Shown here: positions 62 through 18,997 of the stretch, piece by piece
Position numbering within the stretch: the first letter of the stretch is position 1
Layout: each line of letters starts with the position of its first letter
Origin: Coriobacteriaceae bacterium
Lineage (GTDB): Bacteria; Bacillota; Clostridia; Oscillospirales; CAG-272
Assembly (NCBI GenBank): GCA_963617165.1
Contig: CAVEOF010000003.1
Location: 11,070-75,069, forward strand
Direction of reading: 5' to 3'
DNA: 64,000 nucleotides
The notes under the pieces: generated by a model
The model's input: only the letters and a program-made list of their open reading frames with translations
Told to the model about the DNA's origin: nothing
Database searches by the model: none
Program-made: the position numbers and the translations under genes

Positions 62-2167
62 TCAAACCCATTCGGCATAGTAAGCGATAATAACGTCCTC
101 CCATGTTGTATGATCATCAATCCGCTGTGCAAGCAGCCCGGGTGCATCATCCCCGGTAAAGGCTGTGGAGTTGCTTGATGTTAAGTCCACCTTAAGCTCT
201 TCATGTGCGTTTGACAGGCTTGGGTCGGAAAAGGTAAATGCAAAGATCTTTGTAAGAACAATTCCATTCGAACCGTAAGAGCTCTCCGAGACACTTCCGA
301 TACCGATACGGAAAGAAACAGAGTAAGGATAAAGGTCTGCTCCCACGTCAAACGGTCGTGTTGTAACGTCAATGTAACGCCCGTCGTCATTCGTGGGTGA
401 GGGTATAAGAAATGAACCGTTAAACTTCCAACCGTCACCATATCCCGAAGCTCTGACGGCGTAGTGAATATGAATAGCTCCACCGCCTCCCGTTCCCTTT
501 AACGCGTAACGATTATCCGCGAATCTCTTAGCAATCAATTGATCGTCGGAGGGCGCATAAGTAAGCTGATTCGGCGCTGCAATCTGTCCGTTATCTGTGC
601 GCATAACAACGCCGAATTTGCCTTCGTTTCCTGTACTACCTTTTACATAGCTGTCTCCGGTAGAATTCGCTATATAGAAGAGCGTCCCCGACGTGGGAAC
701 ATTAAGCTTATTTACCTTGTTGTTCAGTGCAGTAGCGTTGCTTGTGATTCTCGCAGACAAGCCGCTTTCTGCGTCGGTGGCTCTGTTCTTTTCTGCGTCA
801 ATAAGAGCCTGAAGGGCTGCCGACGAAGTGCCGATACTGCCGCGAAGATCTGCGAGGGTGGTTTCGGAAATTCCGCTGTTGATGGCGCTCCACTGCGCCG
901 CGGTGAAACCCGAATTGTTGAGCTGATATTCTTTTCCCCACGAGGTGCCGTTCCATTTATAGCGGGTATAGACCGTTGTTCCGTCGGTGGAATTCCGATA
1001 AAGGAAGGCGTAGTCATTCTTCTCGACATAATACTTTGCCGAAGAGGCTGTCGTCTGCCAGCCAAGATTTTTGAATTCCGTCTCCGTCATGTCGAACGTC
1101 CCGCGGAAGGTCGACGTCGCCGTCGCGACGGAAGAGTTGACAAACGCTTTTGACGCGGCGGCGTTGTCCGCACTCGGGGTGAGAGGTACCAAAATGTCGC
1201 CGTTTGTCGTACGGGAAGGAATCACCCCTTGCCTAACGGCAGACGGTGACATCTCGAAAGCCGTCTGCTTACCGTTCGGATAGTCATCGCTTATTGCAAG
1301 AACTCCGTAAACTCTGGCTGTGTTGCCCTTTTCAGGCGGGTCGATCAGAGGCGGGGCGTCGCGTCTGCGGATCAGATCCTCGGGATTTTTCGGTTCTCCC
1401 TTGGCATACACGGTTCCGTCCTCCCGAACGGCGAACACCCGATCGACCTCAAACAGATCATCGACATTTGCGGGCGGGTTCTCCCCGAGAAGCGTCTGAT
1501 AGTCCCGCGTCGGCTCTTTCGGCGTTTCCGCCGTATCAAAGGGAAGCTGAACGAGAGAGCCTTTTTTTCCTCCGTTGCGGATATTCAGATCCGAAGGGTC
1601 TCCCGTATCGCCTTTTTCGCCTTTTTCGCCCGTTTCCCCCTTCAGCTCCCCTTTGTTGTAGGACGCCATGACCTCGGAGAAATTTTCGGCGTTGTTTTCG
1701 AGAGACTGAAGTCTGCCCTCGTATTCTTTGACGTCGTTGATCATCTCGACAAGAGCGGAAAACTCACTGGTAGACGCAAGGTTGATCGAAGAGATAACGA
1801 CCTCTTTGACCTGCATCGAGAAGATCGGAGCGAAGAGCACCGGGGCTTCCGCACCTTCCGCGCCTCTGCTTCCCGTGACCGTCAGCTGACAGTCGAAGGT
1901 TCCGACGCAGGCGGTCGTCTGCGCCGTGACGTCGTACAGGATCGTGCCCGTCGACGCATCGATCGTGCAATTGTTGACGAGGGTTGTCCCGTCGGGTTTT
2001 ATCACGGAAAGAAAGCAGGAGCAATCGCTCGTCAGCTTGTACGGCTTTCCGCCCTCGGTGAGGACGAACACGATATTTTTCGCCGTATCGTTTTTGTTAA
2101 ACTTCAGAAGCGCCTGCGAGCCTGTATCTCGGATATCCAGTGATACCCTGTAATTTGAATAGTTCAT
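62..2167 (-). CDS. Tail fibre / receptor-binding protein. N-terminus resembles the BppU-type baseplate-upper domain; has a collagen-like G-X-Y run.
   Basis: ORF 62..2191. Start preferred at MNYSNY (ATG 2167) with AAGGAG 8 nt upstream. GELKGETGEKGEKGDTGDP triplet repeat. Last large gene of the late operon. Confidence 0.6.
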   Translation of the reverse strand: MNYSNYRVSLDIRDTGSQALLKFNKNDTAKNIVFVLTEGGKPYKLTSDCSCFLSVIKPDGTTLVNNCTIDASTGTILYDVTAQTTACVGTFDCQLTVTGSRGAEGAEAPVLFAPIFSMQVKEVVISSINLASTSEFSALVEMINDVKEYEGRLQSLENNAENFSEVMASYNKGELKGETGEKGEKGDTGDPSDLNIRNGGKKGSLVQLPFDTAETPKEPTRDYQTLLGENPPANVDDLFEVDRVFAVREDGTVYAKGEPKNPEDLIRRRDAPPLIDPPEKGNTARVYGVLAISDDYPNGKQTAFEMSPSAVRQGVIPSRTTNGDILVPLTPSADNAAASKAFVNSSVATATSTFRGTFDMTETEFKNLGWQTTASSAKYYVEKNDYAFLYRNSTDGTTVYTRYKWNGTSWGKEYQLNNSGFTAAQWSAINSGISETTLADLRGSIGTSSAALQALIDAEKNRATDAESGLSARITSNATALNNKVNKLNVPTSGTLFYIANSTGDSYVKGSTGNEGKFGVVMRTDNGQIAAPNQLTYAPSDDQLIAKRFADNRYALKGTGGGGAIHIHYAVRASGYGDGWKFNGSFLIPSPTNDDGRYIDVTTRPFDVGADLYPYSVSFRIGIGSVSESSYGSNGIVLTKIFAFTFSDPSLSNAHEELKVDLTSSNSTAFTGDDAPGLLAQRIDDHTTWEDVIIAYYAEWV

Positions 2168-2250
2168 AGATCGGTTCTCCTTTGTGAACATGATACCACA
2201 CGGAAGGCGGGATCTTAAATCCCACCCCCGTGCGTTTTTTTGGCATTTTA

Positions 2251-5200
2251 TCAGAATGCCCCGAAGATCTTTCGGATGAGCGGGCGGAGGTCTCGATCGA
2301 TATTCTTGATCGGCAGACCGAAGAATTTCGCAAGCGCGCCGATGATGTCGGAGACCTTCCTGTAGGGGGACTTCCGACTGCTGTCGATGGACTGCAAGGC
2401 GCGGATGAGATCCTTGAAGAGGCTCATATCCAGTCGCGAGACATCGTACCCTTGGAAGAGCGAAACGATGTCCCGCAGGACGGGGATGTAGTTGAACGGC
2501 ATGATGTCGTCGAGGAACGAGTCGAGCGCCGATTCTCCGTATTTTTCAAGATAGGATTTCTCGTCGTCATCGTCTCTCCACGCGTACACCACCGCTTTCA
2601 AAAGCGAGTTCAGCACGATGGAAGCCAAGACCGCGCCGCCCGTCTTTGCGACGATGCCGGCACCTTTCGCGCCGCCCGTTCTCTTGCCGTTCACGAAAGC
2701 GTCGAGCATCATGTTCGCGGTGGTCGTCGGCTCCGCCATGAAGGCGGTCGCCATCTTCATGAGGCTGTTCTTGTTCCGCATGTTCGCACTGCGGGAAAGA
2801 ACGGAGTCATAGACCTGCGTCAGGTCTATCACGTCGGTAAAGCGTTTTCCCGCCTCCGTGAGAAGTTCTTCTCCGACGAGTTTTGTCGTGTCCGCCACCC
2901 ATGCCTTCGTCGCGTTCCAGATATGGCACCATGTGATCTCGTCCGCGAGGGCGGGCGCCCGCGAGAGCACATCGTCACGGTACGAGCCGTCTTTGAAAAA
3001 GGCTTTCAGCTTGTTTCGGAAGCCTTCGTACTCTTCGGACTTCGCCCACTCGAGCGAGCTTCGTCCCATGCCCGTGTCGAAGTACCCCATCTCCTTGATG
3101 CCCGCGACGGGCGCGTACTTCTTGCACTCTTCCCACGTCTCGGCGTGTTTCTTGAAATTCAGCTGTTTCAGGGAGGTTTTGATGAAATACCACGGGGAGA
3201 TGTACGCCATCGCGCGGCAGATCGCCGACGGCTGCTGAATCGTGACGGAAGCGGACATAAACACCGCGCCCTTCTTCGCAAGTCCCGTCAGCTTATCGAG
3301 CACGCCCGCGTCCTTGACTCTGACGCCGCCGTTCAGCTCGACGAGCAGATCCTTGATGTAGGTATTCGCCGCGTCGCCGCAGGTGTTCGCCAAGGTCGTG
3401 CGCACGGAGACGTCTTCGCCCTCGCCCCGCGCCTTATACTGCCATACCCGGTTGAAGTCCTCGAGCGGGAGCGTGAAGGCGTGATACATGGACATCTCGT
3501 TGCAATGCCCGACCCACACGTCGGTGAAGTTGCTCATGATGATGGGATTGTTCGCGCGCGGGGCGGTCGACTTCGTGAATCCCGCGTTCTTGATCTTCGC
3601 CTCTCCCTTCACCTCGTTCTCGGTATAGAGGAATTGCCCCGAGGACTTCAAGGGGAAGTAGTTCTTTTCTTTGAAGAGCTTCACGCCGTACATGGCGAGC
3701 GCGACCTCGTTTCCCTTTTCGCCCATGACCTCGGAGAGATACGCCTGCATGATGTCGGCGTATGCCTTTTGCTCTTCGGTGAGCGTGTTCAGGATCTCGG
3801 CGATCGTCGCCTCGGAGAGACGGTAGGCGCTCTTGTCGTTGACGGTGTACTTCATGGGAATCCCGAGCTTGTTCTTCTCCACGACCTCGATCGCGTCGTC
3901 GAAGACGATGCCGCCCTTCGTCAGGTGGTCGATCGCCTGCGGTCTCTTCGAGTAGGCGTAGAGCGAGAGGATCTGCTCCAAGGTCATGTCGAAGGTCTTG
4001 CCGCTCTCGGAGGTGAAGGTGTACTTCTTTGCGTAGTCCCATTTTGAGACGCCGTACGCCTTCTTCTGTTCTCTCAAAAAGTCGCGGGCGGCGGCAAAAT
4101 CCTTGTACCACACGGACTGCCCTTCGCGGACATTCTTATATAATTCCGTCAGGGTGTCCGAGCCGATCATGCGCATCGCGTAAATGGGTTTCAGGTTGTC
4201 CCATCCGAAGTTTTTGGTGATGTATTCCCAAAGTTTGGAGACCTTCCCGCGCTTGCCGTGCGTCTTCTCTGCCTGTGTCATGACCTCGGAGGCATACCAC
4301 TCGATCGTCTTCGCCTTGTCGAGGTGAAACGCCTTGTTCGCCTGTCTGACGGAGGTCAGGATCATCTTGTAGAGGTCATAGACCGCCTCGAGTTGTGCCA
4401 TGGTCATATCACGGATCGCGGTGTCCCCGACCTTGCGGATCACATCGTCGAGCTTGCCCTCGATGACCTCGTCGTGAGAATTCGCGATCAGCGGGTCGTC
4501 GGAGTTGATGATGTCCGCATAGGCGGCTTTGAGCTTTTGGAGCTTGCCCTGCATCGACTCGCCCTGCGCGGCGATACGGTTCCTTGTCTTGGTAAGCTCT
4601 TCGAGCATTTCGGGGTCGGTGGTCTTTTTGATCAGCTCGTCGTACTTCGCGACCCGTGCGTCCGCGCCGACGGTGTCCATATTGATCGCGTCGAGCGCCT
4701 CGGCGACGACCTTCTGCATACCGATCAGCACTTTATTCTTCGCAAGGTAGGCGTTCAGCTCGGCGACGATCTTCTTGACCTCACCTCTTGCCGCCGTCCG
4801 ATTCCGTCCTTCGATGGCATTCTTGCGGGATTCTCTGTTCTTGCGAACAATTTCGTTCACGGTTTCTGCGGTCTTCTGTCGATATTCATTTAGAGACTCG
4901 ACATACTTTTTCGCCTCTGCGCGCTTTGCCTTCGCCACTTCCCGCGAGAGAACATTCCGAAGTGCCTCGGACGCCTCGAGACGGAAAAGCTGTCTGTCGT
5001 ACTTCGTGATCCTCGCCTCGATCTCGCTCGCCGTACTTTGAAGCGAGCGGATCTTCTCGGTGTCCCTCGCGCCTTTGGCAAACGAAAGCTCTTTGATCTT
5101 TGCCCGGGTTCTCGAAAGCCGTTCTTCTTCCTGTTCCATCAGTCCGATCTTCGTCTTGTACTCATTGAGCTTTTGCCGCTCCGTCTCGTTCTTTGCGACC

Positions 5201-8200
5201 GTCCCGAGGGCGTTCGCGAGAAGCGTGCGGTTGGAAAGGTCTTCTCTCTCCGATAATTTGGAAAAACTTTTTTCGCTTTCTCTGTTGACATTTTCGGAGG
5301 TTTCGGATATAATATTAGTAAAGTTAGTCGTTGAAAGGCGAGCGGGCAATTGCAGCCCGTGAGTAGCCAACAATGTGCTAACTCTTTTTTTATCCTTCGA
5401 GTAGTATAAAACCTCGTCATTTTCTATCGCATACTCTACCAAAGATTTCGTGCTGCGCCCATAGGCGCTCGCGACAAAATTTGTATTCAGCCTGATAGAA
5501 TCGCCCAGCTCAACATCCAAATAAGTACCGTCCTGATTTATCCATACGGGTATAATCATTTCGCCCTTACTCGTCTGAATGTCAGTGATTGCCACAACGC
5601 TCTCAGCCGGATTCGTTTTTGATTTTACAATCATTACAGGGTCGGCGATTGCCTGCGGTATTTTCTTGATAAGCTCTGCACTCATTTCGGAATGCTTAGA
5701 AAGGATTTCCTTTACTTTTGAATTTCTCATAAGTAAAGGTTTGTTTTCAAATCCTATATCAAGCAATACTTGCGGCGTTTTTCCCACATAGAGGTCATAG
5801 TTCGGATCATGCCTGCCCGCGAGAACATCGTCAATCTGCGAAGAAAAACTTCTCTCGGAATACCGAATATCCGGGTCGGCGGTCGGCTTCAGGTTGTCCA
5901 TCCGTTTGATCTGATTGGAATCGAACGCGATGTATTCCTCGCCGCCGTTGTTGACGCCGTCATATCCGAGGCTCTCGAGGTATTCTCTCGCCTTGACGCC
6001 CGCGTTGTTCTGACCTTGGAATTTCTTCAGTGCCCGATATGCCTCCGACTCGCTCGCGGGATTTTTGATATTCAGATAGTACGCGCCGACATTCTCGCCG
6101 TAGCCGCCAGCGTCAATCTCCCACGGACTGAAGAACGACCCCTGAATATCCATGTTGGCGCGACCTTTGGCGCGGTCGAATACGGTGAATTTCTCCGAAG
6201 TGCCGTGATATACCACGAGCAGATTTCCGTCTTCGTCCCGGATCTTGGAATCCTTGAAAAACGCCTGCTGTTCGCGGGACAGGGACTCGCCTTCCGAGTT
6301 GCGGGGGGAATACAAAGCACTTTTTCCGATCTCTCCCTCGGGTCTCGCATCATATCCGTAATGCTTCAGCACATCTTCCGGAAGCACATCCGGAAAATAC
6401 CTGTTGACATATTCGAGAAGTTGTGCTATACTAATAGTGGAATCCGTAACGGGGGGTTGAATCCCCGGGCGCACTGAGCGCAGCGGATTCTCTTTTTTTG
6501 CATTAATCGCGTAGAGTACATCCATGGAAGCGAGCTCGTTGCTGAAACGATTGACAACGAATCTGACGGCGTACATTTCCCCGTTCTTCGCCGTTGCCGT
6601 GCCGATCAGCACATAACTTGACGCCGCTTCCGCTTTGCTCGGCACCAGTTCGTTGATCTGAATGGCGTTTTTCAGGATTTCTCCCGCGGCAAGCGTCACG
6701 CGGGCATAGGCAGCAAACCGTCTGTCGAGTCCGTGCTTGAGTCCTTGTGTCGAAAGAACCACATCGGTGCCGATGTCATCGACATAAACGCTCACGCTCC
6801 CGTCTTTGGTGTTGAATTTCCCTATCTTGGCGGCGTTTTTCTTGGCGGCGGATATGACATCGGCTCGGTTCTTCGGCACGGTATCTTCCAAAACGGTAAT
6901 TTTCATGTCCGGCTTTGAGACGAGAGAGTCATAGGTGTATCTATCGGATTGCTTTTCGGAAAAACTTTTTTCGCTTTCCCTATTGACTTTTTCGGAGTTT
7001 TTGTGTATACTACCCTCAGAAGCATTCTTGTTATAACTGTCTGCGTTATCTGCTTTCAGTTCACTGACCTGAGTGCTTCTTCTTTTTAGCGTTTCCGAAA
7101 ATTCCGTGTTTTTGCTATTGACAAATGCTCTTGCTTTGCGTATAATAGTATTAGAGTCAAGATTCGTTATAGCGTTGGGGAATTGTACCCCAAGGCTCAC
7201 TGACAAGTCTTGGCTTTTCTTTTTATCCCAATAGAGAACCGACTCGCTCTCCGCAAGTCTATTGAGAAAGGATTGAAAATTATTCCGACCGTAAGCGCTT
7301 GTCATAATGTTTGCGCTAATATGTGCTTTGTTCCATCTTCCGACACCGTTCAACATAATCGCGGCGATAACCGGTCTGTTCTCCGAGTCAATCGCCTCTG
7401 TTACGATGACAATGCTATCCGTTCTCGTGAAACTGTCTGCAATCATTACGGGAGACGAAATATATTCCGGAAGTTTTTTGACCACATCGACATCAATCCC
7501 GTGTCCGCCTGCGGAAACGATCTTTTTCAGATGTTTTGCGGTCATGAGGATTGGGAGTCTCGGCAGCCCTGCATCCAAAAGTAATTTCGGCGTGCCCGAC
7601 AATTTGAGATGGGTACTGTTTGTATCGGCACCGGAGAGAACATCATCGACCTGTGAAGAAAAACTTCTATCGGAATACTGAATACTCGCGGCGGCTGTCG
7701 ATTTTATATTGCTCTCCGCCTTGCGGAAATTCTGCAAGGCGTCGACGGCGGCGTCGGCGAAGATGTCGCGGATCGCCTCGACGCGGGTGAGCGTGTCGGC
7801 GGCGATGTCTCCGAGCAGGCTGTTCGCACTCTGCCCTCCGTAGTCGCCACGAAGTCTGCTTATGATTATCTTAAAGAAATCGACAATTTTCTGCAAAAGC
7901 GTCCGATCCGTCTTCGCGAGGCGGTCGGCGACTCTCGAGAGTGCGTCGGTGTCCGTGAAGATCTTCTCCGAGCACTTCGCCACGACCTCCGAATAGGCGA
8001 TGTCCCGCAGTTTGCTCTCCCCGAGATTCTTATACTTTTCCTGTTCTCTAAGCCGAAGGATCTCCTCGGTCAGCATGGAGGACACGGACTTTTGATCCAT
8101 GCCGAGTTCCTCAAAGAGGATGTCGGCATATTTTTTGAATTTTTCGGGGCTGAAGTCTTCGATGAAGTGGACAAACTCATGCGTGACGGTATAGGCGACG

Positions 8201-10980
8201 AGTCCCTCGCCCTTCACACTGCCCGAGTTCAGGTCGATGTGAATGCTTCCGTCTTCGGATATGTAGTAGCCGTTCTCCTTCCCGCTCTGCCGCTCCTCAA
8301 GGGTGGTTTCGTACACATAGACATTTGCGCCGAGCTTGGAGAGGATCTTCGCGAGGGCAAGTCCGCTCTTCTGCCTGTCGTTCAGCTTGCCGAATTTCGC
8401 ATCCGAGATCTTCCCGTCGACGACACGATGCTCGCCCTTGTAGACGGTATTCCCCTTGACGCTCGTCGGCGCCGTTTTCTTCGACGCGGCGTAGATCGCT
8501 TCGGTCTTGCCGAGGTTGTAGGCGGTCTTTCTCACGGCTTCCGTGAGCTTGGAGGTAAAGACACCCGAGGCAAGCTCGGAGGCATTCACGCCCTTCGCGC
8601 CGTACCAGTACGCGTCGCGGATGCCGAACGCGACGGAGATCATGCTCTTGCCGTCCGTCTCGAGCGCGTCCGCGAGCAGGGTATTCGCGGTATCGGCACC
8701 GACACCCATGTCGGCGATCACGGAATAGAGAACCGCCTCGCCTTTGGAGGAAAAGCTGATGTCCGAGGCGCGGACGGTCTCGCCGTTCTCGAGCTTCAGG
8801 GTAAGGTTGCCGTCCTCATTCGACACGACGGTGTCCCTTGCCGCGAGCGTGATCTTCTCGCCCGTTTTTGTGTTGATGGTTTCCCCGTCGTCGGTGAAGG
8901 AAAACTTCTCGGATAGGGATTTATCCATCTCCGACTTTTCGATCTTGCCCTCGAAATAATCGCGGATGATGCCTTCTCTGACCTCGGTATGATGCGCGTC
9001 CCGTTTGGCGATCTCCGAGCCTTCACCCTTCACGACCTTGTCGTACACCTTTTTCACCGAGGGATTCTTCATCGCCTTTTTGAGGTCAACCTCGCCGCCG
9101 TTATAGTCTTCGAGGAGGATCTCCGAGAGCTTCGCCGCCGCGCGCTTCGCCTTCTTCGCGCTCACGCCGTCCTCGGTCATTTGGTCGATCAGCGCCTTTT
9201 CGATGCTTCTGCGGTTGTTCTCGTTTTTCGCCTCGTTGATCTTCTGATCGAGGATGCCGACGTTCGTCGGGGTGGGCTTCTTTGCCACATTCTCGGCGTA
9301 CTTTCCGAGGGTCGAGTTTTCGCCGCTCTCCTTCGCGGTCTCGACGGCGAGGTTTTTCAGCGCGTCCACACCGCCGACATCTATGATGTTTTTGCCCTGT
9401 CGGTAGGTTCCGATGTCGTTCACCGTGTTGGAGACGAGATTCGTCGGCGCATTCATGACCGCCGCGGACAGTGCGCCGAGCGTGAAGCTGTACGCCAGTT
9501 CTTCGGCACTTGAAAAATCCCACTCGCCCGTGAAGATCGCATTGATCGCCGTAGAGCCGATGTCCTGAATGACCTCCTCGAGACCTTCCTGCACGGGGTC
9601 AATGACAAACTGATCGAAAAAGCGAAGAAGAGCGCGGGTGATCCCGTTCGCGGAAGACTGAAGACCTTTGACGAGCTTCGTCTTGCCGAGCGCCTTGCCT
9701 ACGAAATCGCCGCTCAGACCTCCGATCCTACCGAGGAAGTATTCGGACGCGCCTTCCCACACGCCGAGCACCGTGGACAATGCCCGCGCCTGCCCCTTGT
9801 TCATGCCGCTGTTCAGAAGCTCCTGATAGCTGTTTCCCGCGGCGGAAAGTCCCATCGCGGACACACCGACGATAGGACCTGCGGTGCCGCCCGTGACGGC
9901 GGAGAGAAGGATCGACGGGAACATATTGCCGATCGTGCTCGCCGTGTCATAACCGATCTGTCCGAGGGAGCTGCCGAGAAACTTGCCGCCCGTGTCCGCG
10001 AGATCCTCGCGCACGAGTCCCGCCGCGATCTGCATCGAGGTGGGCGCGATGGTATCGTCCCGCATGTTGAAGGCATTTTTGATCCCCTGTCCGAATTGGT
10101 CGATTCCCGCGCAAAATCCGAAGAGAAGCTCCTGCGCGGTGCTCCCTTCCACCTGACTGAAGATCTTTCCGCCTTCTCTCTCGGTGAGGACGCCGTCCAT
10201 ATTCTCGAGGAATTTCGCGGCGGTGCCCTGCTCGAGCTGTCCCGCGTTCTCCTTCGCCAAGAGGTAGTTATAGATGCTTGCCTCGTCGTCGTCCATGATG
10301 TTCGCGTATCGGTAGTCGCCCGTGATGTCCCCTCCGCCGCCTCTCACCTTCTGCGCCGTCTGCGTGCCGATGTTCGCGATATTGTCGCGGGAGAAGGTCA
10401 CGATGTTTTGGATCGGGGCGCCGTCTCTTCCGATACCGAAGAATTTGTGATCCTGCGCCTCTTCCCACGACGGGTTTTTGATGTTCGCTCCGAGTTTGGA
10501 ATAATACCCGAAGTCGTCGGCGGACATCATATCCTTCTTGTACTTGTCAAGATCGCGGGCGAACATGTATTTATCGTACGCGTCCGCGTTCGCAAACTGC
10601 GAATAGTAGCTCTGTATATCCCCGAAGCCGTTCAGGATGTCCGCGTAGGCTTGATAGGCGTCGGCGACGGACTTGACGGAGTCCTCCCCCTCGCCGTAGT
10701 CCGTGACGTACTGCTTCGCGGAGGAGAGCCGCGTGACGATCCCCGAGAGGCGCTTCTTCGTCTCCTCGAGAGAGCTTGCGTCCTTCCACCCGGCGTCGAG
10801 CTCGTTCAGCGCCTTGTTCAGATCCTCGAGATCGCGGTTCAGCGTGCCGTCGGTCAGGTCGCGATAGGTCTGATACTCGGAATAAGATCTCGTTTTTCTT
10901 CTTGTCTTTGTTTCCTTCTGCCCCGAAGACGAGTTTTTTTCAAGGTATTCGGAAAATGTTTTTGCTTTTTCCATCGTCAT
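2251..10980 (-). CDS. Giant (2,909 aa) multi-domain polyvalent virion/ejection-type protein: zincin metallopeptidase, H-Y-E ADP-ribosyltransferase-like domain, two MuF-C-like repeats, coiled coil, ~1000-aa C-terminal structural part.
   Basis: Single uninterrupted ORF with an AAGGGAG RBS. Motifs read directly from the translation (see domain features). Position is between virion proteins and the tail fibre. Confidence 0.8.
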   Translation of the reverse strand: MTMEKAKTFSEYLEKNSSSGQKETKTRRKTRSYSEYQTYRDLTDGTLNRDLEDLNKALNELDAGWKDASSLEETKKRLSGIVTRLSSAKQYVTDYGEGEDSVKSVADAYQAYADILNGFGDIQSYYSQFANADAYDKYMFARDLDKYKKDMMSADDFGYYSKLGANIKNPSWEEAQDHKFFGIGRDGAPIQNIVTFSRDNIANIGTQTAQKVRGGGGDITGDYRYANIMDDDEASIYNYLLAKENAGQLEQGTAAKFLENMDGVLTEREGGKIFSQVEGSTAQELLFGFCAGIDQFGQGIKNAFNMRDDTIAPTSMQIAAGLVREDLADTGGKFLGSSLGQIGYDTASTIGNMFPSILLSAVTGGTAGPIVGVSAMGLSAAGNSYQELLNSGMNKGQARALSTVLGVWEGASEYFLGRIGGLSGDFVGKALGKTKLVKGLQSSANGITRALLRFFDQFVIDPVQEGLEEVIQDIGSTAINAIFTGEWDFSSAEELAYSFTLGALSAAVMNAPTNLVSNTVNDIGTYRQGKNIIDVGGVDALKNLAVETAKESGENSTLGKYAENVAKKPTPTNVGILDQKINEAKNENNRRSIEKALIDQMTEDGVSAKKAKRAAAKLSEILLEDYNGGEVDLKKAMKNPSVKKVYDKVVKGEGSEIAKRDAHHTEVREGIIRDYFEGKIEKSEMDKSLSEKFSFTDDGETINTKTGEKITLAARDTVVSNEDGNLTLKLENGETVRASDISFSSKGEAVLYSVIADMGVGADTANTLLADALETDGKSMISVAFGIRDAYWYGAKGVNASELASGVFTSKLTEAVRKTAYNLGKTEAIYAASKKTAPTSVKGNTVYKGEHRVVDGKISDAKFGKLNDRQKSGLALAKILSKLGANVYVYETTLEERQSGKENGYYISEDGSIHIDLNSGSVKGEGLVAYTVTHEFVHFIEDFSPEKFKKYADILFEELGMDQKSVSSMLTEEILRLREQEKYKNLGESKLRDIAYSEVVAKCSEKIFTDTDALSRVADRLAKTDRTLLQKIVDFFKIIISRLRGDYGGQSANSLLGDIAADTLTRVEAIRDIFADAAVDALQNFRKAESNIKSTAAASIQYSDRSFSSQVDDVLSGADTNSTHLKLSGTPKLLLDAGLPRLPILMTAKHLKKIVSAGGHGIDVDVVKKLPEYISSPVMIADSFTRTDSIVIVTEAIDSENRPVIAAIMLNGVGRWNKAHISANIMTSAYGRNNFQSFLNRLAESESVLYWDKKKSQDLSVSLGVQFPNAITNLDSNTIIRKARAFVNSKNTEFSETLKRRSTQVSELKADNADSYNKNASEGSIHKNSEKVNRESEKSFSEKQSDRYTYDSLVSKPDMKITVLEDTVPKNRADVISAAKKNAAKIGKFNTKDGSVSVYVDDIGTDVVLSTQGLKHGLDRRFAAYARVTLAAGEILKNAIQINELVPSKAEAASSYVLIGTATAKNGEMYAVRFVVNRFSNELASMDVLYAINAKKENPLRSVRPGIQPPVTDSTISIAQLLEYVNRYFPDVLPEDVLKHYGYDARPEGEIGKSALYSPRNSEGESLSREQQAFFKDSKIRDEDGNLLVVYHGTSEKFTVFDRAKGRANMDIQGSFFSPWEIDAGGYGENVGAYYLNIKNPASESEAYRALKKFQGQNNAGVKAREYLESLGYDGVNNGGEEYIAFDSNQIKRMDNLKPTADPDIRYSERSFSSQIDDVLAGRHDPNYDLYVGKTPQVLLDIGFENKPLLMRNSKVKEILSKHSEMSAELIKKIPQAIADPVMIVKSKTNPAESVVAITDIQTSKGEMIIPVWINQDGTYLDVELGDSIRLNTNFVASAYGRSTKSLVEYAIENDEVLYYSKDKKRVSTLLATHGLQLPARLSTTNFTNIISETSENVNRESEKSFSKLSEREDLSNRTLLANALGTVAKNETERQKLNEYKTKIGLMEQEEERLSRTRAKIKELSFAKGARDTEKIRSLQSTASEIEARITKYDRQLFRLEASEALRNVLSREVAKAKRAEAKKYVESLNEYRQKTAETVNEIVRKNRESRKNAIEGRNRTAARGEVKKIVAELNAYLAKNKVLIGMQKVVAEALDAINMDTVGADARVAKYDELIKKTTDPEMLEELTKTRNRIAAQGESMQGKLQKLKAAYADIINSDDPLIANSHDEVIEGKLDDVIRKVGDTAIRDMTMAQLEAVYDLYKMILTSVRQANKAFHLDKAKTIEWYASEVMTQAEKTHGKRGKVSKLWEYITKNFGWDNLKPIYAMRMIGSDTLTELYKNVREGQSVWYKDFAAARDFLREQKKAYGVSKWDYAKKYTFTSESGKTFDMTLEQILSLYAYSKRPQAIDHLTKGGIVFDDAIEVVEKNKLGIPMKYTVNDKSAYRLSEATIAEILNTLTEEQKAYADIMQAYLSEVMGEKGNEVALAMYGVKLFKEKNYFPLKSSGQFLYTENEVKGEAKIKNAGFTKSTAPRANNPIIMSNFTDVWVGHCNEMSMYHAFTLPLEDFNRVWQYKARGEGEDVSVRTTLANTCGDAANTYIKDLLVELNGGVRVKDAGVLDKLTGLAKKGAVFMSASVTIQQPSAICRAMAYISPWYFIKTSLKQLNFKKHAETWEECKKYAPVAGIKEMGYFDTGMGRSSLEWAKSEEYEGFRNKLKAFFKDGSYRDDVLSRAPALADEITWCHIWNATKAWVADTTKLVGEELLTEAGKRFTDVIDLTQVYDSVLSRSANMRNKNSLMKMATAFMAEPTTTANMMLDAFVNGKRTGGAKGAGIVAKTGGAVLASIVLNSLLKAVVYAWRDDDDEKSYLEKYGESALDSFLDDIMPFNYIPVLRDIVSLFQGYDVSRLDMSLFKDLIRALQSIDSSRKSPYRKVSDIIGALAKFFGLPIKNIDRDLRPLIRKIFGAF
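5375..5865 (-). other. MuF-C-terminal-like domain, copy 2
   Basis: RYSERSFSSQIDDVLAG...KPLLMRNSKVKEIL...ADPVMIVKS...FVASAYGRSTK...VLYYSKDKK. Collinear with copy 1. Confidence 0.5.
5890..6245 (-). other. ADP-ribosyltransferase-like domain (H-Y-E type)
   Basis: LLVVYHGTSEKFTVFD ... GSFFSP ... VGAYYLNIK ... GGEEYIAFDSNQIK. The order H / Y-Y / E fits the PARP/diphtheria-toxin-class triad. Confidence 0.55.
6480..6945 (-). other. Conserved but unassigned domain of the giant protein
   Basis: YTYDSLVSKPDMKITVLED...STQGLKHGLDRRF...YVLIGTATAKNGEMYAVRFVVNRF...LYAINAKKE. Resembles modules seen in phage/ICE polyvalent proteins. No family call made. Confidence 0.35.
7200..7680 (-). other. MuF-C-terminal-like domain, copy 1 (about 165 aa)
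   Basis: QYSDRSFSSQVDDVLSG...LPILMTAKHLKKIV...SSPVMIADS...IMTSAYGRNNF...VLYWDKKK. Family name is from memory of the Pfam MuF_C pattern and is unverified. Confidence 0.5.
7980..8640 (-). other. Zincin-type metallopeptidase domain of the giant protein
   Basis: HEXXH motif in LVAYTVTHEFVHFIEDFSPEKF; HEFVH is encoded at 8167..8181. Domain limits are approximate. Confidence 0.6.
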
Positions 10981-11022: not shown

Positions 11023-12204
11023 TCATTTAAGCAAAAGCTTTTTTCTGCTGAGTTCATTGCTCCCCCCGTGTCTGACGCCGCCCTGAAGGTCATCGCTGCG
11101 GGGATCAATGCCGGTGCCGCTGCTTGCTGCGCGTTTGAAAGTATACTGTCCGCTCTTCTTTTCGCTACTGCTGCCGCTGCTACTCTGACTGCTTTTTCCG
11201 AGATTGCCCTGTTGCTTGTTATAGGACTCTCCCTCTTTCAGATTTGTGAGAGCCATCCGTATCTCTTCGGGGAGTTCTTCTATTCTGTACACATTGCCGT
11301 ACTGATCCGTCACCTCATCGTCTGCGTCGACACCTTTTCCCCAGTTGAACAGTCCGTTATCGGTATCCTTCGTTTTGGTGTAGGTTCTAATAGCAAGACC
11401 TTGCTGAATGTTATTGTCTTTGATATAGGCGAACATCTTGTCGGTATCGTAATCCTCAAACGAAGCGACGTATCGGTTCAGTGCATATTCTCCGCCTTCT
11501 TCATACGCTTTCGCCGCATTCAGAAGCATTTCCGAGGTCGGCGTTTTGAGCGAGGAGCTTGTGGGAAGCACCTCGTTGCCGTCGGTATCCTTCGTGACGC
11601 CGAGCTGAAGCTTATCCATCGCCATCTGATAGGCGTCGGTGTACATTCCGTAGTCATACGCCCGCTCCGTGTTGTATGCGTTCTCCGCATACTCTCGGTC
11701 GGTATTCCAACGGCTGACGGCGTCCTGCCATTCCCCATAGGCGGTGTCGTACTTATCCTTTTCGAGACCGTAGCGGGTGAGCAGATCCTGCCCCTCCTGA
11801 TTGTACTTGTCGAGGGCGAGCTGATAAAGCTCGGGCACCTTATCGTTCAGTCCCTGAAGATACCCCTGATAGGTCTGCTGACCGACCGTCGCGGCATAGG
11901 AATTCCCGTACCCGCCCGTCAGAGCGGATGCCTGTCCCATGGCGTCCATCATTGCCTGCTTGCCCTGCGTGATGTAGCGATCCTTGTACTGCTGATAGAG
12001 CATGTCCCCGTTGATGTCGTAGGAGAATTTCCCGCGGTTGTTGTACGCGTCGAGCGCGGACTGCACGGGGGCATAATTCGTGCTCTTGTCGAAGTCCTCC
12101 GGCTTTCTGCCCAAGATCTCGGACAGATCGGACTCGAGTTTCTTCGTCTTCTCGCTCGGGGTATATTCCCCCCTGTCCCAATAATCCTTGAAAGATATTG
12201 TCAT
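11023..12204 (-). CDS. Virion-associated protein of unknown function (393 aa; Tyr/Asp/Gln-rich with a Ser-rich tail)
   Basis: ORF in the late operon. Its start overlaps the upstream stop (TAATG). No recognisable enzymatic motif. Confidence 0.6.
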   Translation of the reverse strand: MTISFKDYWDRGEYTPSEKTKKLESDLSEILGRKPEDFDKSTNYAPVQSALDAYNNRGKFSYDINGDMLYQQYKDRYITQGKQAMMDAMGQASALTGGYGNSYAATVGQQTYQGYLQGLNDKVPELYQLALDKYNQEGQDLLTRYGLEKDKYDTAYGEWQDAVSRWNTDREYAENAYNTERAYDYGMYTDAYQMAMDKLQLGVTKDTDGNEVLPTSSSLKTPTSEMLLNAAKAYEEGGEYALNRYVASFEDYDTDKMFAYIKDNNIQQGLAIRTYTKTKDTDNGLFNWGKGVDADDEVTDQYGNVYRIEELPEEIRMALTNLKEGESYNKQQGNLGKSSQSSSGSSSEKKSGQYTFKRAASSGTGIDPRSDDLQGGVRHGGSNELSRKKLLLK

Positions 12205-12425
12205 TACGGCGCCTCCTCTCCCTTGCCGATTTCTGTTTCATACGCCGCCGCTTCCGCTCTCGCCTGCTCCTCGGCGGACGCTTTCAGCTGTAACCAGTAG
12301 TTACAGACGATCGGCTCGATGATGCAGGCGGGAAGACCGCTCCGCGCGATGGCGCTCTCGATCTCTGTCTTCAGCTCGCGCATTGCCATCGTCAAGGGTT
12401 TTGTGGGTTTCGTTTTTTCTTTCAT
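12204..12425 (-). CDS. Small late protein (73 aa)
   Basis: Internal start MKEKTKPTKP with AAGGAG upstream. The upstream 14 codons of the listed ORF lack an RBS. Confidence 0.5.
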   Translation of the reverse strand: MKEKTKPTKPLTMAMRELKTEIESAIARSGLPACIIEPIVCNYWLQLKASAEEQARAEAAAYETEIGKGEEAP

Positions 12426-12463
12426 TTCCGTGCTCCTTTTTCTTTCATTTCGTGATGGAAAAA

Positions 12464-13642
12464 TCAAATCGCTATTTCTCCGCCGCCCGAAGATGTGGCG
12501 ATGTCATACGAGCGGAATTCATACAGATAGTTAACATTCGTATTGTTGGACGAGAACAGGCGGTACACGATTCCGCTACCGTCCGACAGAAAATAGGTGA
12601 ACATATACCCTTTGGCAGAAGAAACCATTCCCCCGCCCGTTGTTGTCCCCTTGTAAGTTCCTCGAATTCCTGAAGAGGAATGAATGTTATCGTCTTCAAC
12701 GATGAAACCGCCGATGCGAACGGAGTCATCCGTTTTGTTTGCGTAAAATTTGCCCGGTACTTCGAGCGATGCGGCAGTAACATCGAGTGTGTTGATATAG
12801 TCGGTGGTAACCGTACCGCTTATGATTGTAGCGACGCCAAGAGTGTCCACATCGATATGCGAAGCGGTCAGTTTTCCATCGATGTTGGCGTCGGTGATCT
12901 TCAGCACACCGTCCTCGATGAGACACCCGCCGATCTCGCCCTCCCTCGCCGTGATGTTGCCCGTGATATTCGCGTCGTGTGCCTCGAGGGTTCCGTCGGG
13001 AAAATAGATCTTTTGCGGCGTGATATGGGCAAGCTCTTTGTCATTCCCCCAAAAGGAAATTCTATCCGCCGTGAAGGTGGTCGCAAGGTTCCGTCGGTCG
13101 ATCAACCTGTGACCGCCCGCGTCCGTCGTGGCGTTCAGAAGACCGACCCCGACGCCGTAGACGGGTTGCGAGCCGTCGTAGTAGAGCAGTCCCGTTTTGA
13201 TATAGGACTTATTCTCCACATCGCGGTCGGCATAGTCGCTCCGCAGGTTGGAGGTGTAGGAATACAGCTGTGTGATCCCGGTCGAGTTTGCTTCGAGCGT
13301 CGCTTTTGTTTCCTCTTTGTAGGTGCCGAAAACGGAGTTCGCAAGATAACTGCCCCCGAGTTCCACGCTTATCTTATCCGTCAGGGACTCGATAAAGTCC
13401 GCCGACTTGATAATCATAGACTTGATCGAGGCGTATGCCCCCTCGAGCTTTTCCTCCTCGCTTTGCGTGACGGACGGGGCGGACGTAGCAGAGCCTGTCA
13501 CTCCCGTCGCGTGCACCGCGCCCTCGATGGTATTCATCGAGAAATTCAGCTGCTCCGTCAGCCGATAGATGTATCTTGTCAATTGGGCGATCTTCTCGGT
13601 GTCCGAGCCTGTGATGCTCGGGAGTCTGAAATCAAAGCTCAT
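12464..13642 (-). CDS. Tail fibre/needle-like structural protein (392 aa)
   Basis: Repetitive beta-rich C-terminal half (ANITGNITAREGEIGG, ITDANIDGKLTASHIDVD), typical of phage fibres. ATGA overlap with the upstream gene. Confidence 0.55.
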   Translation of the reverse strand: MSFDFRLPSITGSDTEKIAQLTRYIYRLTEQLNFSMNTIEGAVHATGVTGSATSAPSVTQSEEEKLEGAYASIKSMIIKSADFIESLTDKISVELGGSYLANSVFGTYKEETKATLEANSTGITQLYSYTSNLRSDYADRDVENKSYIKTGLLYYDGSQPVYGVGVGLLNATTDAGGHRLIDRRNLATTFTADRISFWGNDKELAHITPQKIYFPDGTLEAHDANITGNITAREGEIGGCLIEDGVLKITDANIDGKLTASHIDVDTLGVATIISGTVTTDYINTLDVTAASLEVPGKFYANKTDDSVRIGGFIVEDDNIHSSSGIRGTYKGTTTGGGMVSSAKGYMFTYFLSDGSGIVYRLFSSNNTNVNYLYEFRSYDIATSSGGGEIAI

Positions 13643-15390
13643 CGTGTATCACTCCCTTGCTCGACGGTCTTCGTGATCGAGTAGATCTTCGCGTCCCCCT
13701 TGCCCTCGATGCGCAGGCGGAAATGGTCGCATCGGCGCGGCAGGATCGGCATAGCGAAGCTGTAAAGGCTCGCCGCCGTGCGCGTGCAGATGTGCTCCCA
13801 CTCGCCCATCGAATCGTACTGAATGAAAAACGAAACGGTAGAGCCGAGGTCGAGAGACATACGCACGTTCAGAGCGGAGATATACTTTCTGTCGGGGTAT
13901 TCCGCGCTGACGATGCCCGTCTCCGCCATCCACTCGACGCGTTTTTCTTCCGTTCTGCCTCCGATTATCGTGTAGATTCCGCTTTTTCCGTGTTCGATAT
14001 AACAGAGATCGTTCCGACAGGAGCAGAAGGCGTCGACCTGCGTGTTGTCCTCCTTGTGCCAAAGTCCCCGCGCGACGTCGAAGACGAAGAGCGTAAAGAC
14101 GCCGCTCTCGTCCTTCATCGAGACGTAGTATTTGTTCCCGTGCGCGCAGGCGACGGCGTTGCTGTAATTCACCTCACCGAGCGCGGAGGAGATCTCCGAC
14201 GGAAGGGAGCCGTCGTAGGCACAGATGCCCGTCTTCGCCTTATAAAAGAGCGTCTCGTTCACCATGGCGAGGCTCTTCCCGCTCCCCTTTTCCACGCCGC
14301 GGCAGGCGGTGGTCTGGATCTGATAATTCGCGGGATAACTCCCGTACACCTTGTGCACGAAATTCTCCTTGAAGAAGTGCGGATATCCGAGATAGGCGAA
14401 CGCACCCGTAAAAGCGCCGTCCGTGCCGACGCTCGCGACGTAGCTGTCGGTCGAGAGTCCCATGAAGCAATTCCAGTTTTTGAAATCCCCCTGCTTCGAG
14501 GCATAGATCTCGTTGACGGGCTTCCCGTCCGCAAGACCGTAGCGGCACCCCCACAGGCGGTTCCCCGACTCGATGATGAGATCCATCTCGGGCATCTTCC
14601 GCGCCACCGTCACGGACGTCTTGACGCTTTCCGTCTTGTCGAGCATCCCGAGGATCACGAGATAGTCGTCTCCCCGCTCCCATACGATAAAGGAGCCGTC
14701 GATCGCGGCGAGATCCGTGTTTTCCGTATTTCCCTTGAGTCCCGAGATCGTGACGCCGTCATATTGCGAAAAGGGCTTTCCGATGCCGGGCGCACCGATC
14801 TTGATATAGGTCGTCGCGACGGAGACCCACATCTCGCTTTTCTCGGAGTATTGCTTCAGGGTATGGGGTTTTGTCGATGTGTCGATCCAATATTGCTTGT
14901 CCGTCGGGGTCTCGGGTTCCTCCGTGCCGATGCTCTCGGCATAGGCGCTTCCGTCGAGCTTGCAGAGCGAAAAGGTGACCTCCGTCTCCTTCGCCGTCGT
15001 CACGCTCGCCTCTATGCTTCCGTAGTCGGTCGTATTTGTCGAATTGACATACTTTTTGTCGGGCAGAATGATGATATAGGCGCCCATGGAGACGAGCGTC
15101 TTCTCGGTGTAGGGGTCGAGCGTCAGCCCTTCCACCGCGTGCTCACCGATATACAGTGTCGTGCCGCCGACATAGCAGAGCGCGTCCTTTGCGAGAAGAC
15201 CGCGCGGCTTCTCCGCCCGGTTATAAATCCCCCGCTTCCCTCGCGGAGAGAGGAGCGGATAGTAAGCGGAGGTGAGGTTTTTCATATCGTAAAACTCGCC
15301 GTCCCCGATGCGGAGATTGTGGTTGTATCCCGCGAAGATCTCCGTCACCGTCCGCGACGCGGCGAGTACGTTCATTTTGGGAAGTCTCAT
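13639..15390 (-). CDS. Large virion protein (583 aa), possible tail hub/nozzle with propeller-like repeats
   Basis: Position after the capsid/connector genes. Repeated YxG...Y strands. No family confidently recognised. Confidence 0.5.
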   Translation of the reverse strand: MRLPKMNVLAASRTVTEIFAGYNHNLRIGDGEFYDMKNLTSAYYPLLSPRGKRGIYNRAEKPRGLLAKDALCYVGGTTLYIGEHAVEGLTLDPYTEKTLVSMGAYIIILPDKKYVNSTNTTDYGSIEASVTTAKETEVTFSLCKLDGSAYAESIGTEEPETPTDKQYWIDTSTKPHTLKQYSEKSEMWVSVATTYIKIGAPGIGKPFSQYDGVTISGLKGNTENTDLAAIDGSFIVWERGDDYLVILGMLDKTESVKTSVTVARKMPEMDLIIESGNRLWGCRYGLADGKPVNEIYASKQGDFKNWNCFMGLSTDSYVASVGTDGAFTGAFAYLGYPHFFKENFVHKVYGSYPANYQIQTTACRGVEKGSGKSLAMVNETLFYKAKTGICAYDGSLPSEISSALGEVNYSNAVACAHGNKYYVSMKDESGVFTLFVFDVARGLWHKEDNTQVDAFCSCRNDLCYIEHGKSGIYTIIGGRTEEKRVEWMAETGIVSAEYPDRKYISALNVRMSLDLGSTVSFFIQYDSMGEWEHICTRTAASLYSFAMPILPRRCDHFRLRIEGKGDAKIYSITKTVEQGSDTR

Positions 15391-15409
15391 GTTCTCCCCC
15401 CCTTCCGTA

Positions 15410-15435
15410 GAATTCAGAATTAAGAATTAAGAATT
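15410..15435. repeat. Left arm of a 26-bp perfect inverted repeat built from 7-nt AT-rich units (GAATTCA GAATTAA GAATTAA GAATT)
   Basis: Exact reverse complement of 15844..15869. The 7-nt tandem tract extends to 15445. Confidence 0.9.
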
Positions 15436-15446
15436 ATGAATTATGT

Positions 15447-15815
15447 TTAGTGAAATCTGATCTTTGTGCCTTTCGGCATGTGGGTTCTGTGGTACTGCCC
15501 GGAAAATGCCGTATACGCGGAATTGAACGCGGCGGCACTGTTGTTGTATTTGTCGTACTCGTTGTTTGCGTAGTCGATCTGCGCCTCGAGCCATTTGACA
15601 TAGATGTCGTCATACGGGGGCGGGACGAGAAGCACCGCGCCGAGATCTTCCTCCCCGTAGCCGACGAAAGGGGCGTTCTCCCCGCCCTCGTGGGTATCGA
15701 CGACCTCCGTGCGGATCATTCCGTCGAGTTTGGACAGCCATCCGAGCTTCGTCTCTTGCGCGAAGTTATTCGGCTTGATGTCGTCGGTATAATTGATCGC
15801 TTCGATAACGGTCAT
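15447..15815 (-). CDS. Small late protein (122 aa), possible head-tail adaptor. The gene is bracketed by the inverted repeats.
   Basis: ORF with an AAGGAG RBS. Function inferred from position only. Confidence 0.55.
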   Translation of the reverse strand: MTVIEAINYTDDIKPNNFAQETKLGWLSKLDGMIRTEVVDTHEGGENAPFVGYGEEDLGAVLLVPPPYDDIYVKWLEAQIDYANNEYDKYNNSAAAFNSAYTAFSGQYHRTHMPKGTKIRFH

Positions 15816-15843
15816 AAGTATCTCCTTGCAAAAACGAATTCAC

Positions 15844-15869
15844 AATTCTTAATTCTTAATTCTGAATTC
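15844..15869. repeat. Right arm of the 26-bp perfect inverted repeat
   Basis: AATTCTTAATTCTTAATTCTGAATTC is the reverse complement of 15410..15435. The tract extends to 15876. Confidence 0.9.
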
Positions 15870-15927
15870 TGAATTCGGTCTCTGTTTTTTAGCCAAACGG
15901 GGGCAATCTCTCGCCCCCGTTTTCTGC

Positions 15928-16155
15928 TTAGTGTTGTTCGTTCGCCGCGCGGAAGTCGTATGCTTCCGACTCCGCCTCTTCCCGATGGCGGAGCACCTCT
16001 GCCACGCACTCGGGCACCTCGACCTCGACGCCTCTCTTGATGAGCCATGTCCGCTCGTTCACAGAGACGAAGACGTCCCCTTCGTCGTTTCTCTCGCGAG
16101 GGATTTTGATCTTCACGAGCTTTTCTTTTTCGATCGTTGCCTTGGATTCTGCCAT
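15928..16155 (-). CDS. Small late protein (75 aa) following the capsid gene
   Basis: ORF with an RBS. A GC hairpin lies downstream at about 15896-15925. Confidence 0.5.
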   Translation of the reverse strand: MAESKATIEKEKLVKIKIPRERNDEGDVFVSVNERTWLIKRGVEVEVPECVAEVLRHREEAESEAYDFRAANEQH

Positions 16156-16211
16156 TTGATTTTCCTCCGTTAAAAATTGCGGGGAGGGAGTGTCCCTCCC
16201 CTATGATGTAC

Positions 16212-17303: not shown

Positions 17304-17363
17304 GTTAAAATCTCCTTTGTTTTTTAAGTTTTTTGACGGATAAGGAGATTTCGGATCTGCCTC

Positions 17364-18305: not shown

Positions 18306-18360
18306 GTGATGATCCTTTCTGTCCGTCAAGTGGACGATCCTTTTGGTATATATTAAGGCG

Positions 18361-18986: not shown

Positions 18987-18997
18987 ATCCGTCTCCT

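Follow-up and report, generated by a model that had tools for sequence, protein, structure and literature searches.

Polyvalent proteins, a class known since 2017, are giant polypeptides that combine unrelated enzymatic domains and are encoded among the late virion genes of prophages. Their extensively shuffled domains include ADP-ribosyltransferases (ART-PolyVal, with an H-Y-D triad), MuF-C domains of the phage BECR fold (PBECR), LPD domains and zincin-like metallopeptidases (MPTase), and processing of the polypeptides by their own MPTase has been proposed (Iyer et al. 2017, J Bacteriol, PMC5512222). The founding example of the MPTase is that of gp50, the virion RNA polymerase (vRNAP) of phage N4 (PMC5512222). 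This protein of ~3,500 amino acids (aa), from the family Schitoviridae, is ejected from a podovirus head; its N-terminal domain is putatively membrane-spanning, the enzyme sits in the centre, and an HExxH subdomain and a large, helical C-terminal domain come after it. Among temperate podoviruses, the Shiga toxin (Stx) phages carry giant polyvalent proteins at the end of the late operon: gp47 of phi24B (2,811 aa), a proposed ejection protein that mass spectrometry has detected in virions, and ST933Wp72 of 933W (2,806 aa). Pre-made enzymes are also packaged by T4, whose Alt protein is an ADP-ribosyltransferase, and by P1, with its Dar proteins and with DdrB, which contains an MPTase and is processed (PMC5512222). 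Here we describe a gene of this kind in a 64,000-nt stretch of contig CAVEOF010000003.1 (hereafter the window), within what its gene content identifies as an integrated prophage of gut Clostridia. Its 2,909-aa product almost certainly belongs to the polyvalent class.

The gene makes up about a quarter of the visible prophage, 8.7 kb of the ~35 kb that extend from position 1 of the window. A first-pass annotation, made from the letters of the window, had given this same proportion, in agreement with the ORF listing and the prophage extent, and had read the product as one of the polyvalent proteins that Iyer et al. described. That reading is now carried by two MuF_C domains, an ART-PolyVal domain, an LPD3-like module, a zincin and the late-operon position of the gene. 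The motifs that it had listed were all located in the translation where it had placed them, starting at aa 1102 (YSDRSFSSQ), 1707 (YSERSFSSQ), 1589 (VVYHGT), 1632 (GAYYLN), 1681 (EEYIAF), 1410 (STQGLKHGLDRRF) and 1472 (VRFVVNRF), with HEFVH at aa 934-938. Three features set the protein apart from the models and the description of Iyer et al.: a frame of ~2,000 aa that has no Pfam or NCBIfam model, a zincin that PF18818 misses, and a conserved DIRYSDRD joint at which breakpoints fall, the last as far as word searches of the main text of that paper show. As judged from alignments, the protein is a conserved frame with a swappable centre, only aa 1100-1910 being a variable cassette, and the explanation that we hold to be likely as a whole is that of an ejected polyvalent protein built in this manner.

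The frame emerged from a public protein search, which returned 220 relatives; these measure 2,300-4,800 aa, and most of their contigs are ~40-45 kb long. Coverage along the query showed three zones, conserved at aa ~100-1095, variable at aa 1100-1900 and conserved again at aa ~1910-2909. The N-terminal frame is common to 55-97 of 119 homologues per 50-aa bin, with S379, G392, E409 and E469 among its invariant residues; the C-terminal frame is found in 96-116 of the 119 from aa 2000 on, and in fewer before that position. At a threshold of E <= 1e-3 the C-terminal frame has 4,191 cluster representatives, a number that falls to 2,839 when the threshold is E <= 1e-30. Relatives of the giant gene occur in gut metagenome-assembled genomes assigned to Oscillospiraceae, Eubacteriales and other Clostridia. 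By sequence, then, the frame is common to a very large family of giant proteins in gut-Clostridia phages. Pfam and NCBIfam hold no model for either of its halves, and an NCBIfam scan of the whole protein was without match. The AlphaFold2 model of the C-terminal frame (predicted template-modelling score, pTM, 0.67) shows an alpha-rich body; this half also contains an acidic run, RDDDDE (family consensus RDDDEDE), and the long helices at aa ~1932-2080 coincide with the long coiled coil of the first-pass annotation. Compared with BFVD, the model gave 74 matches at E <= 1e-3; among the matches listed, all were phage giant proteins, some of them already labelled 'PolyVal'. The literature on one such match annotated as a 'structural protein', from Tenacibaculum phage Gundel_1, yielded nothing useful. 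Sequence searches of the PDB returned nothing meaningful, whether the query was the whole protein, a profile of the family or a profile of the zincin. Foldseek comparisons of the N-terminal and C-terminal models with a PDB fold library of structures released up to April 2026 gave no match at E <= 0.001, and the helical, transporter-like entries at the top of the output were judged to be noise.

The best-conserved part of the N-terminal frame is aa 330-520, where Pfam offers nothing but a weak resemblance to LPD14 that stays below threshold. Described at first as a Gly/Ala-rich hydrophobic segment, this part is indeed rich in Gly and Ala (25%, versus 10-19% elsewhere in the protein), whereas in hydropathy plots membrane-helix hydrophobicity is confined within it to aa 353-375. 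A second membrane-helix-like stretch lies at aa 2776-2800 (nt 2581-2655).

The frame also exists without cassettes. In one homologue (P0023; 2,300 aa, on a contig of ~39 kb) the N-terminal frame is fused straight to the C-terminal frame and no Pfam domain is present; this natural frame-only member would make a good minimal construct for packaging tests. Elsewhere the order of modules varies, with 73 ART, 26 LPD3-like and 22 MuF_C copies among 120 proteins, and the order in the window is unique. Other cassettes carried by homologues include extra ARTs, PBECR5, PBECR3, an SNF2 helicase together with an adenine methylase, a C5 methylase, a Pol-beta-type nucleotidyltransferase and an M23 peptidase, whose presence fits passage through the cell wall. 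More than half of 53 aligned giant proteins (alignment A1) have a Cys-containing central module (consensus N.DY....D.S..C.KR ... AC..CYVE..R ... IP.H.SG) that is absent from the window protein.

The zincin had been counted among the effector modules. Instead, it is a single-copy part of the conserved frame and always comes first, as seen in 103 of the 120 proteins. The HEFVH motif on which it had been recognized is well supported: residues H934, E935 and H938 are invariant, and position 998, the putative third ligand, is occupied by E or D in all 21 sequences sampled. HExxH persists across about 110 homologues, some of them only ~20% identical, with a single exception (HDxxH), so that the loss of HExxH conservation which the first-pass annotation had named as a refuting outcome did not occur. 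AlphaFold2 places a helix at aa 868-882, strands at 886-890, 904-907 and 912-916, the HExxH helix at 928-943 and a helix containing E998 at 988-1003, with local confidence (pLDDT) mostly of 67-92 over the domain. This predicted order fits the zincin core, in which a sheet of three strands is preceded by one helix and followed by two (PMC5512222). When the 21 homologous regions were compared with Pfam, weak matches were obtained to DUF6782 (6 regions), MPTase-PolyVal (4, best E = 5e-5) and M78 (3), and to other zincin families, namely eCIS_core, M91, M64, M76 and YgjP. Judging by these profiles, the window zincin represents a clade related to MPTase-PolyVal rather than a scored member of it. 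In hhalign comparisons with the 933W giant protein and with the C-terminal domain of N4 vRNAP, the top-scoring stretch was in each case their HExxH region; neither alignment was significant, and both are a hint only.

Three kinds of cassette module follow the zincin. The two collinear modules that had been noticed align over 188 aa with 32% identity (E = 7e-30), and Pfam recognizes MuF_C (PF18819) in both, with 130.6 bits for the two stretches together (cut-off 27.6; E = 2.8e-38). MuF-C is a PBECR domain and a predicted RNase (PMC5512222), so that by homology these are predicted RNase domains and not structural modules. The catalytic residues expected of a BECR fold, namely His on the N-terminal helix together with either Ser or Thr on strand 4, were sought in a pairwise alignment of the copies: the first has H at about aa 1154 (TAKHLKK) where the second has K, and both keep (T/A)SAYGR. 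A linker, (K/N)VNRESEKSFS, stands after each MuF_C, at aa 1330-1342 and 1893-1905 (nt ~6955-6993 and ~5266-5304). Since it repeats after both copies and before the next joint, the duplicated unit consists of MuF_C plus this tail.

The additional conserved module that had been pointed out between the first MuF_C and the ART could be identified, through a homologue, as a divergent LPD3. The direct score against LPD3 (PF18798), 17.6 bits (E = 0.0044), falls short of the cut-off, which is 27; from aa 1401 onward, however, the module aligns to residue 1188 onward of homologue P0116, in which Pfam finds LPD3 with E = 6.4e-15. The module is present in 26 copies in 24 homologues. The ART itself matches ART-PolyVal (PF18760) with 72.2 bits against a cut-off of 31.2. 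It had been described as an H-Y-E ART-like domain, of which the ART part stands and the E does not. In 78 copies from 60 homologues, H1592 is conserved in 61 (with R in 14 more), Y1635 in 67 and D1674, of the sequence GYDG, in 75, as against 31 for E1682 of EEYIAF; the triad is therefore H1592/Y1635/D1674, the H-Y-D configuration described for the polyvalent ART clade, with H expected in strand 1, Y in strand 2 and D in strand 5 (Tox-ART-HYD2; PMC5512222). Of the profile matches that had been anticipated, MuF_C and ART-PolyVal thus scored above cut-off, LPD3 remained sub-threshold and MPTase-PolyVal found no match in the window. The matches were not limited to tape-measure or structural families, as catalytic domains exceeded their cut-offs.

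The boundaries between these parts share a short motif. S[DEP]R occurs five times in the giant protein, each time at one of the five module boundaries (joints 1 to 5, Table 1). In the 120 homologues the pattern [IVTL][RQK][YFH]S.[RK] was observed 145 times against 13.5 expected, and 118 of 122 mapped occurrences fell in the variable centre, which has 36% of the residues. The logo of the joint reads D-(I/V)-(R/K)-(Y/F)-S-(D/E)-R-D, with D at -1 in 61% and D at +6 in 47% of cases. The motif trails ART modules (NxxPTSxPDIRYSDRD) and precedes the starts of MuF_C, LPD3-like modules and the C-terminal frame, whatever lies before them. In homologues the LPD3-like module comes directly after DIRYSDR, and most of the C-terminal-frame starts, located by motif search in 24 homologues, begin with [YF]S[DE]R....SNRxLLANAL. 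The notion that the motif is merely an ART flank was ruled out, because the C-terminal-frame, LPD3-like and MuF_C starts use it too. The enrichment of plain YS.R was set aside, about half of it arising from a conserved frame motif, YAYSKR, and the analysis relied on the stricter pattern and on the mapping of boundaries. Joints 1 and 5 are modelled with pLDDT below 50. Word searches of the main text of PMC5512222 found no description of the joint motif. One peptide of the joint type is PTADPDIRYSERSFSS.

Comparison with the closest relative, on contig L002 (encoding P0002), showed that modules have been exchanged at these joints. DNA blocks 94-97% identical between the two loci begin and end there: the 94%-identical block of the N-terminal frame stops ~10 aa upstream of joint 1, and another block of 94% identity starts at joint 5. 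At those joints whose codons could be read one by one, joint 3 included, the partner switches directly after the Ser codon; in one example, TTGTATTCC is followed by CCCCGC in one sequence and by GAGCGC in the other. The L002 gene (10001-19777) has the ART ahead of the LPD3-like module, lacks a second MuF_C and continues from its N-terminal frame into ~560 aa of other sequence. Such a difference in order within blocks of 94-97% identity indicates a recent rearrangement of modules at the joints. The joint codons vary synonymously (Arg as AGA, CGC, CGG, AGG or CGT; Ser as TCC, TCT, TCA or TCG), so that in this small sample the peptide appears to be constrained, in addition to any microhomology.

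The gene lies where an ejection protein might be expected. As the first-pass annotation had stated, it is found among virion genes and adjoins the tail fibre. The late operon consists, in order, of the small and large terminase genes, the portal gene, the gene for a 349-aa protein, the major head gene, five small or unassigned genes, the giant gene and the fibre gene. The same order is seen on independent contigs with an identical or ~90%-identical giant gene, L002 and L003 among them; 3' of the fibre, these contigs have small genes only. Neither the window nor contigs L001-L003 contain genes for a tape measure, a tail tube, a sheath or a tail chaperone. The podovirus-type setting that had been proposed agrees with the gene order, with the P22-type portal and with the capsid, whose nearest cultured relatives belong to two podophages of Bacillus megaterium, Page and Pony (38% identity), and to Paenibacillus phage API480.

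Among characterised ejection proteins, for which T7 gp14-16, P22 gp7/16/20 and N4 gp50-52 served as reference class, the resemblance lies in gene position, size and layout only, and is one of analogy. N4 gp50 has a similar domain layout, and its C-terminal domain (~110 kDa, helical) has no known structural relatives; it differs in that the cargo is an RNA polymerase and in that the HExxH subdomain comes after the cargo, whereas here it comes before. The Stx-phage giant protein shares with ours a MuF_C module (~25% identity to MuF_C module 1 in the case of 933W, E = 9e-10) and an HExxH region of similar local pattern. It differs in having LPD5, LPD1 and LPD38 and no ART, in lacking the strict joint motif and in its Gram-negative host. 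In the 933W protein (L004), YSLR at aa 1075 lies near the start of LPD5 and YSRK at aa 1462 near the end of LPD1, and the HEIIH region at aa 1507-1609 is a weak match (5.6 bits) to a hidden Markov model of the family zincin; together these may be a distant echo of the frame-and-joint layout. With T4 Alt, with DarB and DdrB of P1 and with MuF-toxin fusions the giant protein has in common that the enzymes are pre-made, their delivery with the DNA being only inferred here. Fusions of MuF to toxins reportedly act as head-packaged effectors, as Jamet et al. are said to have described in 2017. DarB is composed of a methylase and a helicase, a make-up paralleled by the SNF2-plus-methylase cassettes of giant-protein homologues. 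As to differences, T4 Alt is a single-function enzyme with an R-S-E ART, the Dar proteins belong to a myovirus, and the giant protein has no MuF N-terminal domain.

If the giant protein is an ejected polyvalent protein, it would be made late alongside the virion proteins, and the frame would direct its packaging into the head. Upon infection it would leave together with the DNA by way of the short tail, and membrane crossing might be aided by its two hydrophobic helices (aa 353-375 and 2776-2800). The zincin would cut the chain, most plausibly between Ser and the next residue of the YSxR joints, and the freed RNase-fold, LPD3-like and ART modules would attack RNA and proteins of the host in its cytoplasm, a site favoured because the ART needs NAD+; the methylase and helicase cassettes of homologues would need DNA, S-adenosylmethionine and ATP. 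Such action would precede any phage gene expression, and host defence would be blunted or the host taken over. Packaging and ejection seem reasonably probable to us by analogy with the proteins described above; cleavage by the zincin at the joints is a tentative proposal. We would put forward with similar reserve the idea that D-I-R-Y-S-(D/E)-R-D, cut after Ser, is both an in-frame recombination joint and the recognition site of the zincin.

Several explanations compete with this one. A tape-measure or other purely structural tail protein of a long-tailed phage, in which the enzyme-like motifs are incidental, would account for the great length, the partly coiled-coil sequence, the Gly/Ala-rich hydrophobic segment and the place just upstream of the tail fibre, and some BFVD relatives do lie on contigs that carry automatic labels of Siphoviridae or Myoviridae. 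We consider it very improbable and rejected it, because no tape-measure family is matched in Pfam, PHROGs or NCBIfam, the long-tail genes are missing from the contigs examined, and portal and capsid are of podophage kinship; moreover, length varies between 2,300 and 4,800 aa through enzyme cassettes, as that of a ruler should not, and catalytic domains score far over threshold with their catalytic residues conserved. Packaging, ejection, catalysis and cleavage are all inferred, however, and it is on virion incorporation of the family that another explanation turns: the protein might be expressed late and stay unpackaged, to act within the cell that made it or following lysis, for instance by excluding superinfecting phages or by poisoning competitors. 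ART and BECR domains do occur in polymorphic toxins too. This option appears improbable, for the gene sits within the structural operon and the nearest studied analogues (phi24B gp47, N4 gp50, the P1 Dar proteins and T4 Alt) are packaged; no secretion signal or immunity gene was noted alongside, although neither was specifically searched for. It also leaves unexplained a conserved frame of ~2,000 aa that bears no enzymatic signature and yet persists in more than 4,000 cluster representatives, which fits a role in assembly or delivery.

A more serious possibility accepts packaging and ejection and holds that the zincin spares the joints, DIRYSDRD being a flexible linker for in-frame exchange; the peptidase might then be directed at host proteins or at the cell wall, or cut the giant protein at other sites. 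The breakpoints of near-identical genes fall exactly at the motif, for which selection of viable recombinants would suffice, N4 vRNAP is packaged unprocessed although it too has an MPTase domain (PMC5512222), and the authors of the phi24B study propose peptidoglycan as the metallopeptidase target. On the other hand, the motif is conserved as amino acids with synonymous codons and exceeds a 6-nt microhomology, the zincin is the sole invariant enzyme of the frame and co-occurs with motif-bounded cassettes, and a 2,900-aa chain of unrelated activities plausibly needs cutting, as Iyer et al. argued. A number of results weigh against an ejected and self-processed polyvalent protein in general. The joint motif might do no more than link modules or allow their recombination, and it does not occur in P0114, a polyvalent protein with the same modules in which no match to the frame was seen. 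The second MuF_C copy may be inactive, because K stands at the usual position of the BECR helix His. Membrane insertion is backed by only two weakly hydrophobic helices. The window copy of the zincin matched nothing in Pfam, MPTase-PolyVal (PF18818) included, even at E <= 10, and the whole 1,100-aa N-terminal model gave no zincin match with Foldseek against the PDB; the zincin fold is therefore predicted, not matched. No likeness in sequence or fold to characterised ejection proteins was found in the PDB sequence and Foldseek searches. With hhalign, the frame gave a probability below 2% against the 933W giant protein, meaning no detectable homology, and the family profile was not significant against either the N4 gp50 C-terminal domain (probability 0.7%) or gp20 of Bacillus phage Page.

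As a further member of its class, the giant protein adds a very abundant, unmodelled frame of putative delivery function, a single invariant protease and a precise joint motif. Polyvalent proteins are the predicted first strike on host defences and almost none has been tested; here the joints predict both cut sites and exchange sites, which makes processing and module exchange directly testable. The cassettes amount to a list of candidate counter-defence enzymes of gut phages, comprising ART, RNase-fold, methylase-helicase and nucleotidyltransferase modules. If the dual role of the joint were true, any module placed between two joints would be packaged, injected and cut loose automatically, and the frame would be a general plug-in delivery device for thousands of gut-Clostridia phage lineages. 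Should the frame accept foreign inserts, it could also be used to bring proteins into gut Clostridia.

Table 1. Coordinates of the parts of the giant protein and of other features of the window
Feature	Position (nt)	Strand	Remarks
Giant ORF	2251..10980	minus	single uninterrupted ORF, 2909 codons + stop
N-terminal frame, aa ~100-1095	7696..10683	minus	mostly helical (AlphaFold2)
Gly/Ala-rich hydrophobic part, aa 330-520	9421..9993	minus	within N-terminal frame
Zincin-like metallopeptidase domain, aa ~850-1010	7951..8433	minus	HEFVH nt 8167-8181, E998 nt 7987-7989
Joint 1, IQYSDRS, aa 1100-1106	7663..7683	minus	N-terminal frame / MuF_C-1
MuF_C (PBECR, predicted RNase fold) module 1, aa 1100-1290	7111..7683	minus	best Pfam stretch aa 1159-1257
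Joint 2, KQSDR, aa 1343-1347	6940..6954	minus	MuF_C-1 + linker / LPD3-like
Divergent LPD3-like module + C-terminal extension, aa 1340-1560	6301..6963	minus	STQGLKHGLDRRF...VRFVVNRF
Joint 3, ALYSPR, aa 1555-1560	6301..6318	minus	LPD3-like / ART
ART-PolyVal module, aa 1561-1705	5866..6300	minus	PF18760, E = 9.4e-20, aa 1582-1699
Joint 4, IRYSERS, aa 1705-1711	5848..5868	minus	ART / MuF_C-2
MuF_C (PBECR) module 2, aa 1706-1895	5296..5865	minus	second Pfam stretch
Joint 5, KLSERE, aa 1908-1913	5242..5259	minus	MuF_C-2 + linker / C-terminal frame
C-terminal frame, aa ~1910-2909	2254..5253	minus	phrog_22978, E = 6e-247
Long helical/coiled-coil stretch, aa ~1932-2080	4741-5187	minus	AlphaFold2 helices
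Tail-fibre protein with BppU_N domain	62..2191	minus	downstream neighbour
Upstream late operon	11023..23025	minus	
Proteins of 393, 87 and 392 aa	within upstream late operon	minus	unknown function
583-aa protein	within upstream late operon	minus	phrog_511, 'internal virion protein'
122-aa protein	within upstream late operon	minus	
Major head protein	16212-17303	minus	
349-aa protein	17364-18413	minus	sole match phrog_13908, unknown function
P22-type portal	18998-21088	minus	
Large terminase	21072-22625	minus	
Small terminase	22531-23025	minus	
S24 (LexA/CI-type) repressor	30825-31508	plus	lysogeny end of prophage
Large serine recombinase	33694-35037	plus	lysogeny end of prophage
841-aa ORF after serine recombinase	36425-38950	plus	no Pfam match
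tmRNA, tag DNNRVAVAA	45372-45740	minus	host part of window
tRNA-Leu(GAG)	63806-63889	plus	host part of window

Translation probably starts at the ATG at 10974 (M3), which gives a product of 2907 aa. A ribosome binding site, GGGAG, lies 1-2 nt from the ATG at 10980, too near for use, and 7 nt from the ATG at 10974 (minus strand), at a suitable spacing. An identical protein (P0001) is found in public assemblies, where the gene call is also of 2907 aa.

Further prophage genes in the window encode a replisome organiser and a Sak-type annealing protein, in addition to the S24 repressor and the serine recombinase. The host genes beyond the prophage include those for glutaminase A, SerRS, tmRNA and Fe-hydrogenase. 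In L002, a gene for a Prp-type cysteine peptidase (2184-2528) is located between the portal gene and the next gene downstream; its product is a second candidate protease for the processing of virion proteins.

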